A stretch of 64,000 nt of DNA from Balanoglossus misakiensis (Eukaryota; Animalia; Hemichordata): positions 18,016,303-18,080,302 of the forward strand of contig CM082577.2 of the NCBI GenBank assembly GCA_040954595.2. Direction: 5' to 3'. Under the pieces are notes generated by a model that had not been told where the DNA came from, ran no database searches, and was given only the letters and a program-made list of their open reading frames with translations. Of the stretch, positions 35,001 through 41,000 are shown in pieces (position 1 is the stretch's first letter; each line of letters begins with the position of its first letter). A program made the translations under genes and the position numbers.

Positions 35001-38000
35001 CTTGGTAGTCTTCTACATTAATGGCCAATTCAGGAGCAATAGAGCAAAGATGGTACTTGTACTTACAATCCACATTCCATCAAAAGCAATTTGATCATAG
35101 TAGATCTTAGCTTGTGTGAGCCACCACTTTTTTGATATAGGATTGGTGAAATCTGGAAACACTGTCTCCCCAGGCCATACCTAGAAAGCAACCAGATAAA
35201 AATAGCGTCAAGGACACTTGGTGCTCTCTCAGTGTGTAGTGGATGACGAGCAGCATATTTGGAGAACAGTGGTTTGGTATATGGGTGAAAGGAACAATTT
35301 GCAAACACCAAGGTGAAATGCTGAACTGTTTTGCTCATGTAATATTGAATGCAGCCTGATAAGGTGGGTGCTTGGCAGGGGGAAAAACCACATGTCAAGG
35401 GCTCTAATAACTGTTTTAAATGGCCCGCACACACAAATGGCCTCACACAAATATATTGTCATTTCCCTCTCAGATTTTGTATCTTATGTTATACTGATGG
35501 AATTCATTGTGCATTGTCATATCAAATTGCACCAGTGCAAGCTATGAGAAATGTGTTTTGAAAAAAAAACAGTGCAAGTAGAAGTACTAGTCTAAAAGTG
35601 AAAGAAATACTTTTTGAACAAAAAATATCAGACAGCATTCAAGGTCAGCTGAAGTGTTTTGATAAAAAGTTCTCCATTTTCAAGTATATACTGTCATGTG
35701 CTGATTATAGTAGTGTAGGTGTTAGCAAAAATACATGAATTGTTCAAACAGAAAGTTCAATCAATTCAGGGGTTAAAAATTCCGGTAGCCCGAAGCCCTG
35801 GACTAGCTAGTTTCACCATCGGGCTATCAGTTTCCATTTGCGTTCAAGTCAAGGCAGACCTAACCCATTCAAAATATGCAAATTAGGAAAAGACGCATAT
35901 GCATTCTTTGTGTCCCCAGAGACACACACAGGAAATCAAGCGAGTGCGGCCACTAGCTGGAAGAGCTGAATTCAATGCATTGCCTTGCGATGTTCATGAT
36001 ACAGGGGGGTGATGGTCAATGAACAGAACAGCGGTCCACTTTCACACGTGTAGTGCACTGATCATGGCAAGTTGATCATGGCAAAACAAACGACAATGTT
36101 AGATAGCAGAGCTTCGCAAGTTTGACTAATTTGTATGAAAATCGTCTCGCCAAACACAACTTTTTTCTCGCGGGTAGCGAAAACACTGAGCACTGGCTAA
36201 TCCGTTCCGATTTCTGTCACTGTTCCAATTCTTCCTCAACACCTCAAAGCTACACACCACCACCAAAAACATAAAGCTACACACCCCTACTAGAAAATGG
36301 TATGAATTCTTGACAGGTTGACAGACGGAAGCAGTTTGACGGACGGAAGTAGTAGCTCATACCCAACTTGACAGACTCCTCTGTTTACACTTCGGAGCCA
36401 AAAACTGAACATGATCCTACACTTTGAGAAAAACCATTTAAAGCTCCACTAGGTTATCTTTTCTTTCACGTTTTTAATAATATTCATGTGATATAAATGG
36501 TTTGTAATGCATGCAAATACCATTATTTGTGAATTTCATGGGCAGTACCATGAATCAAACCAAGTCATCTTATCCCTAAAATGTACATCACTGTATGGGA
36601 CTTTGCCCTGACAAGTATGCTAATGTTTGCAATATCAATACTGATTGGCGTTGCCTACATGCTTACCTCTCCTCGGACTAAGGTACCATTATCAAAAGCT
36701 ACAAACACTTTCATAGCAAGTCCATCATCATATGGTTTATACGATCCTTTGGGCTGTTTATTGCTGATAGCTGGGTCCTGTCGATGGAATCAGTATAAAT
36801 TTGGTAAGTTTCGTTCCTCGGTTATCTGATTATCTCCATCACATACAAGTGTGCCATATGGTACACAGTATGTTTGTGAAGTTAAATTTGAATGTCTGTC
36901 CTTGACTTGAAAAAAGTCATAATGAACACCTATTGCCTAGCCATGAGGGCCATAGCAGCCGTTTATTACCCCCGAGGGGCTGTGAGTTACCAGAATCACA
37001 TGCTATTTCCCCGAGGCCGTAGGCCGAGGGAAATAGCATATGATTCTGGTAACTCACAGTCACGAGGGGGTAAAAACGGCTGCTATGGCCCGAATATAGG
37101 CCAGGCCATACCGGTAGGTGTTTTATAATTAAATTATAACATATGAAAGCGAAGGCAATATTATACACATGATGACTGACAATGAGGGCAACAGTGTATT
37201 TTGATGACCGAGGACACTGCTAGTCACAACTAAAACAGTCTTGTTTTCCCGAGGGCATAGCCCAAGGGAAAACAGACTGTTTTGGTGTGACTGGCAGTCC
37301 CGAGGCCATCAAAAATACACTGTTGCCCGAATATGTCAGTCGCCATGTGTTTTGTAACACACCAAACACGGAATTATATCAAGACGGGGCAACAGTACCG
37401 GGCAGAAACTGATCGAAATGATGCCCTGGGGAACAGTTCGACATGACTAAGGTCACGTGACGGCGTATTGACGAATCACGATCGAGTGTTCGCTGCATGG
37501 TGTGTTACAACACGATTTGAAGCCTGCACGAGGGATGGTGCTCTCTGACCATAATATTGATGATGCCCAAGCCGCAGGCAAGGGTATCATCAATATTGTG
37601 GTCAGAGAGCACCAGCCCGAGGGCAGGCTTCAAATCGTGATGTTACCTGAGCATCATGTGTTATTAATTTTATTACGCCGAACATTGGAACGTACATACA
37701 CTATAGAAAAGAAGAACGTAGGGTTGCGTCCATGTCGTACGTTGGTGAGAATGTAAAATGTCTCAATCTCCCAAGAACTATACCTACTTCGAACTCAGAT
37801 AATTTTGAGGATACTGCGCTGTTGGTTGCGATTTTGGTGTATTTACTGTACGGTTGCAGTAAAATATCGTCCAGTTGAACAGGTGTTAAGCCTATGTGTC
37901 GCTTTGAAGCCGTAGATGCAGGAGTTGACTGATCGTGCGTGAAGCCATTGAACGACAGTTTGGTACGCGCAGAAGTCGCGCGCAGAACACCAAAACAACC

Positions 38001-41000
38001 TAGCGGGCAATATCAGCGCACGCGACAGGGCTTTATCAACTCTAGCCATGTTATATCACTTTTTTTTCTATATCACGTGAGCGCGTCTCAGCCAATCACG
38101 AATACGGTATAATACGTGAGGTGTAATAATAAACCTTATGTCTGTGAACTCACATTGGTCATGTTACCGGTTTATATTTTTCTGCTATTTCCCTAGGGAT
38201 TCATAGTCGATTCTATTTTCCTATCACGTGACGGATTCTGGCGAATCACGACACAGTATTAGCATGAGGTATATTATAATGAACACCTATTGCCTGGCCA
38301 TGAGGGCCATAACGGCCGTTTATTACACCCGAGGGGCTGTGAGTTACCAGAATCACATGCTATTTCCCGAGGCCGTAGGCTGTGAGTTACCAGAATCACA
38401 TGCTAGGCCGAGGGAAATAGCATATGATTCTGGTAACTCACAGTCACGAGGGGGTAAAAACGGCTGAAATAGCATATGATTCTGGTAACTCACAGTCACG
38501 AGGGGGTAAAAACGGCTGCTATGGCCCGAATATAGGCCAGGCTATAGGTGTTTTATAATAAACCTCATGCTAACATCTGGGAAAATCTTGCAATTTTCTC
38601 TTGAGGTTGGCAGACGACATCTTCAGCGGTGGCCATTGTGTCAGACGACGCGACGCTGATTGACGTGACCGAGTCTGCGCACTCACGCTGGTCACGTGAC
38701 CGGTTGATATTTTTTCTGCTATTTCCCTAGCGGTTCATAGTCGATTCTATTTTCCTATCACGTGACGGATTCTGGCGAATCACGGCACAGTATTAGCATG
38801 AGGTATATTATAACAGCAAATATGAACTGAATATGCTCCCAAGTTCTAAACTGAACATCAAAAACACTTTGGTCCCGATTTGCAGATTGCACAGAAATAG
38901 GTGTACACCGGAATAAAAAATTACATGCTGTTGAAATTGGCAAGCAGACATGACTGCTGCTCTGGAGGTTTTTGGGCCAAAAATATCGATCTTTTTTTTT
39001 TCATTTATTAAATTCCCAAATTCCCAGTACATCTCTGTGTAGCCAAGACAAACATTTTTAGTTTGTAAATTGACACAAAAATTTGAAAAGCAAGAAGAAA
39101 TATATATGGAGGGTAAGACTTTCGTGTAAGTTTCTGACCATCGTCAACCCCCCCCCCCCCCCCCCCCCCCCATACAGGAATCACATGCAATGACATCAAC
39201 AGAAAATTTCAAACAAACAAGATTTGTTGGTCTGGGAAGACACTGTGTTCATTGATACTGGGATTATTAAACACTGAAAAAACTTACTACTATGTTAATG
39301 TAATGTTGACCATGAGAATGCAGATCTTTTACCAGTTGGCCCAATTCAGCAAATTTTGTCTTGTCATAAGTCCAGTCTAAGTGATTATCCATATAATCTA
39401 TATCATTCCACTGAGTGTCCTGAAATTAAATTTGCAGGTTAAGTGTTTTTCAGATGCAATAAATTTCAAAATTAAGTCAAAGTATTTCCTTGGCAAAGAG
39501 TGATAATCCATTTTGAAACATAAATTTTCCCTACTTGAGTATATTCTATCATGAGGACTTTCAAGTGAGACACAGCTTATTAGCAGACTGAACAGTCAGT
39601 AAGACATGAATTCTCCATATACGTCAACTGGTCAACCATTTAAGAAGTTCTTTGGTAGTTAAATTAATAAATGTCTGCATGTGTGTGTATGTGTATATGT
39701 ATGTTTGTAAAGGAATGTACAGTAAGTAACAAACAGTAGTAGTCTAAGAGGAAAAAGGTGATGCATGCTAGCAACCAATACTTGGCTGTTTTGCTTGATA
39801 GTTGAGTGTGACACTCAGAACACCACTGTGGTGTTTATTGTTTGTTTTTTGTTCCTAAATGGTCTATTAGGAGCTGCTGCTTGACTGATCATAGAGAACT
39901 TACTTGTGGAATTTCATACATTCTCATTTTCTGAACAATTTCCATAGTTCTGTTGGCACTGTTATATCCCCATCTGCACAGATGAAATCCTAGACTCCAA
40001 TATGGTGGCATAAATGGTTGTCCGATCACCTCAGAATATTGCTGAATAACTTGCTCAGGAGTAGGACCAAGGAAGACATAGAAATCTAGAATTCCTCCAA
40101 TTGTTCTGTATGTGATGGCAGGGGTTGGCTGCAAAATAACATCTGTCACAAAATCCAGAGAATCACACACTTTATTATACATGATTTATTATCAAAAACA
40201 ATAGATACATTTTTGTACCAAACAAAAGAGATATCACACAGTGTAGACTAAACATCAAACAGAATGGCTGATACATGTATCTAGCTTTTGAAGTGAATTT
40301 GTAGTGTAGAATAGTACTAACCCATTGCATTACTGTTCAGTAGAAAAACACCATGTGAATAACCATTGGGTTCAACTGCAAGATAAAATGGATGGGAGCC
40401 ATACAGGTTTACATTCTCCTGTAAAAAGGTAAAGAAGGGAACAATTAGCAATCTTGATTTAGGAGACTGTGGGCTTCAAAAGAAATACAAATTCTGACAA
40501 TGAAACTGAAAAATTCTGACTAGTACACTCTTGATATACTAAAAGACCAAGTGTACTCACTTTCATCAAACTATTTACAAGCAAACATAGTGTCAATGAC
40601 ACATGTGCTACACTAGTTAGTTCACAAACTGTAATGAGTTTATGAATTCAACACAATTCTGACTATATTAGAAGTACGTACATACAGTAGATATATGCTT
40701 GATAGGATTATGGATATGAGCTGTTGTTTGTCATTTGAACAAACCTGTAAGAGTCCACAGGACCTGGCAAACAATGTCGACCAATATGACATTCTGTGCA
40801 AATGGCGAAACTTTTGTTTTGGATTAGTATTTCTCTGGTTTCAAACACAGCCACTAAGTAAAGATGACTGAATAAATGTTTCAAAACACCGCTGGTGCAC
40901 AGACGAAGTAGGCTTTTTTTCTCACTGGGAAACAAACAAACAGACAAAAAATAAAGAATCAACAACCCCCGTCATGTTAAACAACACGGGGTATTGAATT

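Follow-up and report, generated by a model that had tools for sequence, protein, structure and literature searches.

According to a 2026 review, transposition of Cryptons has not been demonstrated experimentally, and a double-stranded circle is assumed there as the mobile form (PMC13565253). CryptonA elements have been reported from the acorn worm Saccoglossus; the sections of that survey dealing with animal Cryptons record no terminal repeats, and the termini are listed there as n.d. (PMC3212892). In the current study, a cluster of three repeat families, here called F, G and H, was analyzed in a 64,000-nt stretch of the hemichordate Balanoglossus misakiensis (contig CM082577.2, positions 18,016,303 to 18,080,302; hereafter the window, with position 1 as its first letter). 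F, G and H are repeated, gene-less elements, which were probably moved by a CryptonA enzyme and inserted without gain or loss of a base at the spacer edge of a dyad, with one folded DNA strand as the likely substrate.

The cluster is nested, in the order F1[H[G]]F2, rather than a row of cassettes. All four units (F1, H, G and the second F copy, F2) lie in a single orientation on the plus strand, as had been noticed earlier. On the host side of the left junction of F1 stands the left arm of the original target, which ends in YAN (36917..36922; contigs of other F copies start at 36918, 36919 or 36923). The 5' part of F1 (36923..37128) comprises a constant 7-nt start, a hairpin with a stem of about 95 bp, a C-GTA-G apex and GA/GA mismatches, and the first half of the internal junction. 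This internal junction is the host site of H, which spans 37129-38129 in total and consists of its true 5' end (37129..37161) and, beyond G, a remainder (37511..38129) with the hairpin (C-GCA-G apex), internal complement, core and far end. G (37162..37510) is a complete element of 349 nt, with hairpin, internal complement, core and far end, and sits 33 nt inside the hairpin arm of H at a consensus target with no direct repeat. The 3' part of F1 (38130..38279) opens with 9 nt that make up a perfect spacer and arm, differing at one base from F2, and comprises a core with a deletion of about 104 nt and the far end. F2 (38280..38813) follows head-to-tail, and its start overlaps the hexamer that ends F1, as predicted. 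It contains a 21-nt internal complement of the far end (38553..38573, 95%) and the far end itself, a recombinase arm ending in YAA (38793..38813), after which the 6-bp spacer and right arm of the original target stand whole at the right junction (38814..38822). The original prediction was correct in its placing of the F2 hairpin and junction, of the F1 hairpin end (37129) and of the point where F1 resumes (about 38127-38130). The two F copies agree at 333/349 aligned bases. F2, described earlier as intact, has about 80 nt duplicated within its hairpin (window 38350-38465); a duplication of this type is expected from template switching in a hairpin, and may also be an assembly artefact.

The contig data for the window were assembled contigs from three runs (X1, X2 and X3) of one sample, which is possibly the source of the assembly and would then provide no independent support for it. 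Contig ends fall at 36923, 37507-37510, 38129-38130 and 38279, the position 38129-38130 being the end of H contigs and 38279 that of F contigs. Loose ends of other H copies were found before 37507, 37511, 37521 and 37522 (11 + 8 contigs in X1, 8 in X2 and 1 + 1 in X3; the second contig alignment used for them covered 37455-37575), and they carry the sequence of 37129..37161 directly before the H hairpin arm. Because this sequence extends other H copies to the 5' side of 37511, G is nested inside H; the segment had been taken for a remnant of about 30 bp and is in fact the 5' end of H, and the overlap of G and H described at 37502-513 is absent. The same segment pairs with the right hairpin arm of H once G is removed. 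One contig crosses the G|H boundary, with 32 letters on one side and 30 on the other, and misses the bridging rule by a single letter. Excision of G restores the H hairpin arm and excision of H restores the F1 junction, with no base gained or lost, and after in-silico removal of H, F1 reads through its internal junction exactly like F2. H lies in the internal junction of F1, and G in the H arm, where there is no junction motif. A direct repeat of 5 nt, ATAAT, flanks H at 37125 and 38126, the F pair shares ATAA, and G shares none; no conventional target site duplication (TSD) was found, in line with the earlier statement that none exceeds the shared motif. The segment 36919-38813 is highly repeated throughout, with a summed contig depth in X1 (which is not a copy number) of 1e4-1e5 compared with about 19 in the flanks, and the 1783 and 2002 contigs that align to the cluster have varied flanks, indicating dispersed gene-less copies.

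F, G and H show no relationship in sequence and yet have a common architecture, in the order 5' hairpin (60-95-bp stem, C-GNA-G apex), complement of the far end, core, and short far end. The far end pairs with the internal site and not with the 5' end, and symmetric terminal inverted repeats (TIRs) are absent from all three. In each of them, the junction that would form by joining end to start corresponds to the interior in reverse complement, with a net excess of 2 nt; the same excess was found in a further window family, A, and in five coral families. The junction reads YAA, a 7-nt spacer and NTR, and the internal copy has a spacer of 5 nt. In F2, the entire end-to-start junction, apart from 2 nt that stay unpaired, finds its partner in the complement at 38553..38573 and the hairpin arm next to it, and in the predicted circular fold exactly the first two bases of the paired junction are open. 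A lone minus-strand hairpin with the same type of apex was also seen at 32674-32816, with no far end found.

An enzyme for this design was found in G001, a bin filed as prokaryotic that was reached through a single genome-scan locus (L104) and holds many coral-like contigs bearing Crypton elements; the coral-like DNA appears to be host contamination. Seven DUF3504 matches were obtained in G001, three of them above the cut-off, and the recombinase is 95% identical to a Porites protein. At two loci (L115 and L117) the full three-part design encloses a DUF3504 open reading frame (ORF), antisense to the hairpin strand, and at a third (L116) the far end is common to a large gene-less family, the contig ending before any hairpin. 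The catalytic R, K, HxxR, H and Y are retained in the recombinase. Its predicted model (predicted local distance difference test, pLDDT, 85) is closest to Cre (Z 21.1, root-mean-square deviation (rmsd) 3.2, 297 residues aligned), with lower agreement with the integron integrase IntI4 (Z 15.5, rmsd 5.1, 267 aligned). The coral enzyme is a CryptonA (DUF3504) tyrosine recombinase, Cre-like in this model. Its connection to F, G and H is through the design, no link in sequence having been found. In L115, a short perfect foldback (1218-1335) breaks the recombinase ORF.

The target is a short, dispersed dyad, YAN|N6|NTR, cut at one edge of the spacer. Its statistics were taken from G001, using five gene-less families with 18 left and 34 right junctions after removal of duplicates and internal complements. 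YA was found at -3,-2 in 18/18 left flanks, and TR at +8,+9 in 24/34 right flanks (background 0.133; 2-8/34 at other offsets). The six spacer bases are variable and match the element start at a mean of 2.4/6 positions (uncleaned G001 set), T being somewhat favored at +1 and A at +6. The cut lies at the left edge of the spacer on the hairpin strand. Core spacers of 6-8 bp are given for tyrosine recombinases in the structural part of the Crypton survey (PMC3212892), and the dyad with its 6-bp spacer matches this geometry. In the window, 5/6 sites fit the target rule on each side, A at 24.8 kb failing on the right and an element called D on the left, and 6/7 loose-end rows of F, G and H fit the right-side rule. 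The site of H in F1 is a perfect target through one base that differs from F2, and the site of G is an ordinary consensus target in the H arm.

It is very unlikely that the window families owe their movement to an HUH enzyme (Helentron/HINE, Replitron or IS200-like peel-and-paste). Hairpins, asymmetric inverted repeats and lack of a TSD are typical of HUH elements in the descriptions given by two reports (PMC4067079, PMC10288648), and no partner element was identified in this window. However, the stems here measure 60-95 bp, the insertion point does not lie between two Ts, the dyad target, with its 6-bp spacer, is used from either strand, and elements of the same design encode a tyrosine recombinase. 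For HINEs in particular, the features described are subterminal repeats of 12-15 bp, a 3' palindrome of 5-10 bp and TT targets (PMC4067079); the long hairpin and sites that end in YAN, not TT, ruled against a Helentron/HINE assignment.

Among copies anchored behind their start, 25/28 retained their own 7-nt start (a count that leaves out internal complements and the Z1 and Y1 rows), and at the known empty sites the target spacer is unchanged. The element keeps its own start on the left, and the target spacer stays whole on the right, a combination expected if a single strand is exchanged and replication follows, but not if a heteroduplex segregates at random. The right junction is made up of the element arm, the target spacer and the target arm, and hence is a target again. 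This rebuilding of the site accounts for head-to-tail stacks and for tail-to-tail pairs with a gap of 6 bp. The original proposal of conservative site-specific recombination that regenerates its target is supported by the unchanged empty sites, the dyad target and the tyrosine recombinase encoded by elements of the same design.

Both kinds of pair were observed. Head-to-tail pairs, which represent use of the same strand, are F1/F2 and B/B' in the window and those at the coral loci L142, L143 and L163, and tail-to-tail pairs exactly 6 bp apart are D/E in the window and those at coral loci L150 and L160, the latter two having been picked by eye among right flanks and not by a systematic count over all 34. 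D (33925..34379, plus strand) has the design of F, G and H. It is separated by a 6-bp spacer common to both ends (34380..34385, no strand assigned) from E (34386..34876, minus strand), which shows a reversed far end and a decayed hairpin and may be a composite because its internal complement mismatches its far end. The two elements adjoin, as had been described, but they are in opposite orientations, and TAA repeats make the register of the spacer less certain. B (24273..25457, plus strand) is a hairpin element followed head-to-tail by a truncated B' (from 25458), and a partly deleted copy of A (24792..25108, plus strand) lies within the core region of B, an arrangement that was read by eye. 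Of the earlier claim that B, A and B' abut, the B/B' pair holds, and A is off the junction. A second copy of A (6164..6558, minus strand) is complete and obeys both the target rule and the 7/5 spacer rule; the spacing of junction and internal copy fits in both copies of A. Taken over all families, insertion at one another's junction motif is true of F2 at the F1 end, H in the F1 arm and D/E, and is not true of G and A.

It is very improbable, somewhat more so than movement by an HUH enzyme, that the clustering merely reflects AT content and tolerance of insertions by an intron, with exact joins arising by chance. The target is degenerate, with 3144 oriented matches within the 64-kb window, G and A lie off junctions, and the window was chosen for its stacked look. 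Against this, in the same element-rich loci the right flank starts a long hairpin at 5/34 sites compared with 37/1432 control sites (P about 0.002), three tail-to-tail pairs are spaced at exactly 6 bp, and the window holds about nine such elements with three or four exact joins. Stacking is nevertheless a preference and not a dedicated array, because most copies are solitary and oriented targets are so numerous. Three insertions also lie 33-34 nt into the left hairpin arm of another element, namely G in H (37162), a G end joined to G position 33 (the joint 37507 to 37195 in X2) and Y1 in its host (L124), and this position is a possible secondary hot spot.

A true integron-like array, in which a dedicated site stockpiles cassettes in one orientation, is hardly credible. 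Four co-oriented units, precise joins and a regenerated target speak for it, but there is no integrase in the window and no Pfam-matching cargo in the frames scanned (0 matches for four reading frames of D, E and H), and both orientations occur; the nesting of the units and the dispersal of their copies through the genome already contradict it. As a structure, the integron-like array proposed earlier is not supported, the target being short and dispersed, with no platform, no cargo gene and stacking in both orientations. The likeness that survives is inferred to be mechanistic, consisting of a folded single strand and one strand exchange.

Predicted fold energies for the hairpin strand and the opposite strand were -142.5 and -132.7 kcal/mol for F2, and -99.9 and -90.8 kcal/mol for G. 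On the hairpin-first strand, A-G mismatches outnumber C-T mismatches by 31 to 4 in six window hairpins and by 21 to 2 in three hairpins found via the recombinase; the count over all 17 hairpins (104 to 6) is inflated, as 8 of these were found with GA-containing patterns, and only the subsets were used. Tandem GA/GA was counted 39 times among the 17 hairpins. GNA loops and tandem GA pairs are stable in single-stranded DNA. The one-strand A-G bias suggests a folded single-strand substrate, and from this bias together with the conserved internal complement we infer that the substrate is of this kind.

The mechanism that would follow starts with the hairpin strand becoming single-stranded, for example at a replication fork, where the internal complement would pair with both ends and hold them together. 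The recombinase would then join end to start and release a single-strand circle, whose junction would be a duplex with a 2-nt bulge at the cut. This folded junction would exchange one strand with a double-stranded target, and replication would resolve the product. The right junction could serve as a target in its turn, entry on the same strand giving a head-to-tail pair (F2 after F1) and entry on the other strand a tail-to-tail pair 6 bp away (D/E). H would have entered the internal-junction target of F1, and G an ordinary target in the H arm.

The same elements, enzyme and target could instead act through a double-stranded circle, with a fixed order of exchange or SE-like strand-biased copy-out, and with the hairpin and internal copy serving as a cruciform or accessory sites. 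This is rather unlikely. In its favor, the recombinase model is nearer to Cre (Z 21) than to IntI4 (Z 15.5), the G-T mismatches lack a strand bias, footprints alone cannot separate it from a folded strand, and it is the standing model for Cryptons in the review cited above (PMC13565253). It leaves unexplained, however, the 2-nt-short inverted copy of the junction that is kept by every resolved family, and the one-strand A-G bias. Random segregation of coupling sequences as in Tn916 is disfavored by the 25/28 copies that keep their own start. In SE copy-out, as outlined in the source, 6 bp at attL move to attR (PMC9345347), whereas here the 6 bp stay.

Several observations weigh against movement by CryptonA through a folded single strand. 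The window itself yields no autonomous partner for F, G or H, a six-frame search of its 64 kb giving no recombinase, and the target statistics come from the coral-like bin and not from the host genome. TR is absent from 10/34 right flanks in that bin, the left flank of D misses the YAN rule, and foreign starts occur in 3/28 copies (one X1 copy with a foreign 7-mer). The 2-nt excess is not clear at the B junction, nor in the autonomous element at L117, and on the hairpin-first strand the apex at L115 does not form a GNA loop. The two strands of the F1 hairpin fold equally well, and neither strand is favored by the G-T versus A-C mismatches (27 to 19, P 0.30). A double-stranded circle with a single strand exchange leaves the same footprints. 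F1 is more decayed than F2, yet sequence alone does not reveal which of the two was inserted first. No empty-site joint was found among the 15/47 joints inspected, and flank contigs run unbranched into F, the contigs of this one sample showing presence and not absence; likewise these contigs gave no sign of a circle, an excision or an empty allele, and tandem copies produce in them the same junction as a circle.

Searches outside the window were made with hairpin patterns. Genome scans gave 0 loci in the first round and 12 in the second, one of them animal-like. Neither a recombinase nor a Rep/helicase was found in 69 frames beside 26 metagenome hairpins (AT-rich or long-stem, out of 82 loci), and a 2.3-kb metagenome element (L011) was gene-less by the frame test. 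In viral contigs, the apex patterns gave 0, 15, 2, 0 and 3 loci, of which 0/20 had a long stem or animal-type flanks, and there was no relative of the G001 recombinase in these contigs. It was also observed that bacterial REP-like palindromes (L004:4128-4148 and L042:3147-3167) carry the 21-nt hairpin apex of F on short stems.

The cluster is located in an intron of a minus-strand gene for a GH31 lysosomal alpha-glucosidase-like protein, whose exons on the two sides of the intron (36664..36777 and 39291..39422, both minus strand) were placed by tblastn with the Ptychodera flava protein. The best protein matches of this gene are those of acorn worms (Ptychodera flava 75%, Glandiceps 67% and Saccoglossus 60%). 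Rfam gave 0 matches across 33500-39500.

The window also holds features of other kinds. An element at 14190-20661, which we take to be ISL2EU, has perfect 112-bp TIRs and looks young; its ORFs encode THAP-DDE_Tnp_4 (14350-15810, plus strand), a YqaJ/alkaline-exonuclease (17220-18485, minus strand) and a SAP fragment. Symmetric foldback elements of other designs, resembling miniature inverted-repeat transposable elements (MITEs), lie at 3049-3401, 52052-52220, 53300-53654 and 4178-4785, and also at 15952-16219, 21486-21848 and 40930-41719. Broken reverse-transcriptase fragments of long interspersed nuclear elements (LINEs) were seen at 7859-9901 and 22959-24192, B beginning shortly after the second. 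A complex repeat occurs twice, 30 kb apart and about 94% identical (500-1950 and 31248-32077), and 46500-58400 is occupied by a gene on the plus strand in which an EPTP domain is accompanied by numerous short exons of beta-rich repeats.

The present analysis contributes the rule for the target, the spacing of 6 bp in tail-to-tail pairs and a correction of the nesting. Literature searches on Crypton ends, targets or mechanism gave no paper whose title or opening lines of the abstract describe this design; Repbase entries may already note the hairpins. Exact test substrates follow from the anatomy of the elements, which specifies the position and strand of the cut, the 2-nt bulge and the dyad of the target, together with an enzyme sequence that appears to be intact. 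A further outcome is an annotation rule for very abundant repeats of marine invertebrates and a reason for their clustering. If the single-strand route is true, a chemistry known from integrons and CTX phage would have a eukaryotic example, and an integrase that needs no homology and leaves no scar might find use.

Among known systems, a MITE of a DDE transposon was rejected, both symmetric TIRs and a fixed-length TSD being absent. DIRS retrotransposons are similar in having an internal copy complementary to the joined ends, together with a tyrosine recombinase, according to the part of a report that treats their structure (PMC13465315). They differ in that no reverse transcriptase match was obtained in the scanned autonomous loci of the present design, which has a hairpin in place of terminal repeats. 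Tn916 carries coupling sequences. Tn916/Tn1549 and SE resemble the present elements in needing no spacer homology and in using AT-rich dyad targets, with a strand bias in SE, in the account of PMC9345347, but no coupling sequence is carried over here, the start is constant and the target spacer stays on the right. The CryptonV elements of cnidarians are likewise target-specific, and the targets described for them in that source are microsatellites (PMC8869645), whereas few flanks here are simple repeats (L154 and L189). A CryptonV identity was dropped in view of the DUF3504 matches of the enzymes and of targets that mostly lie outside microsatellites.

A dif site has two arms around a 6-bp spacer, which the window target resembles. 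In CTX phage, which uses XerCD, a folded single strand mimics a double-stranded site, and this site is depicted without extrahelical bases (PMC4792948); the present junction has a 2-nt bulge, the enzyme is element-encoded (in the coral elements) and the degenerate targets number in the thousands. Integron attC x attI recombination, as presented in the mechanistic sections of two reports (PMC5027507, PMC4792948), shares with the proposed route a folded single-strand site (here predicted) with unpaired bases, one strand exchange, replicative resolution and re-use of the junction. In contrast to integrons, there is no intI/attI/Pc platform and no cargo, the target is dispersed and used in both orientations, the site consists of two ends and an internal copy and not of one hairpin, and the enzyme model is Cre-like.

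The likeness to CryptonA lies in the DUF3504 enzyme of same-design elements, the lack of a TSD and the abundance of gene-less derivatives, to which the window elements add a long hairpin, an internal copy of the junction and a defined dyad target. Non-autonomous CryptonA best fits F, G and H among the known kinds, the assignment being made by shared design. On balance, the comparison leans slightly towards animal CryptonA as the eukaryotic counterpart of integron and CTX recombination, in which a Cre-like enzyme would act on a self-splinted strand, a spacer of 7 versus 5 nt would block the second exchange, insertion into YAN-N6-NTR would be homology-free, and the rebuilt site would let unrelated families stack both ways.

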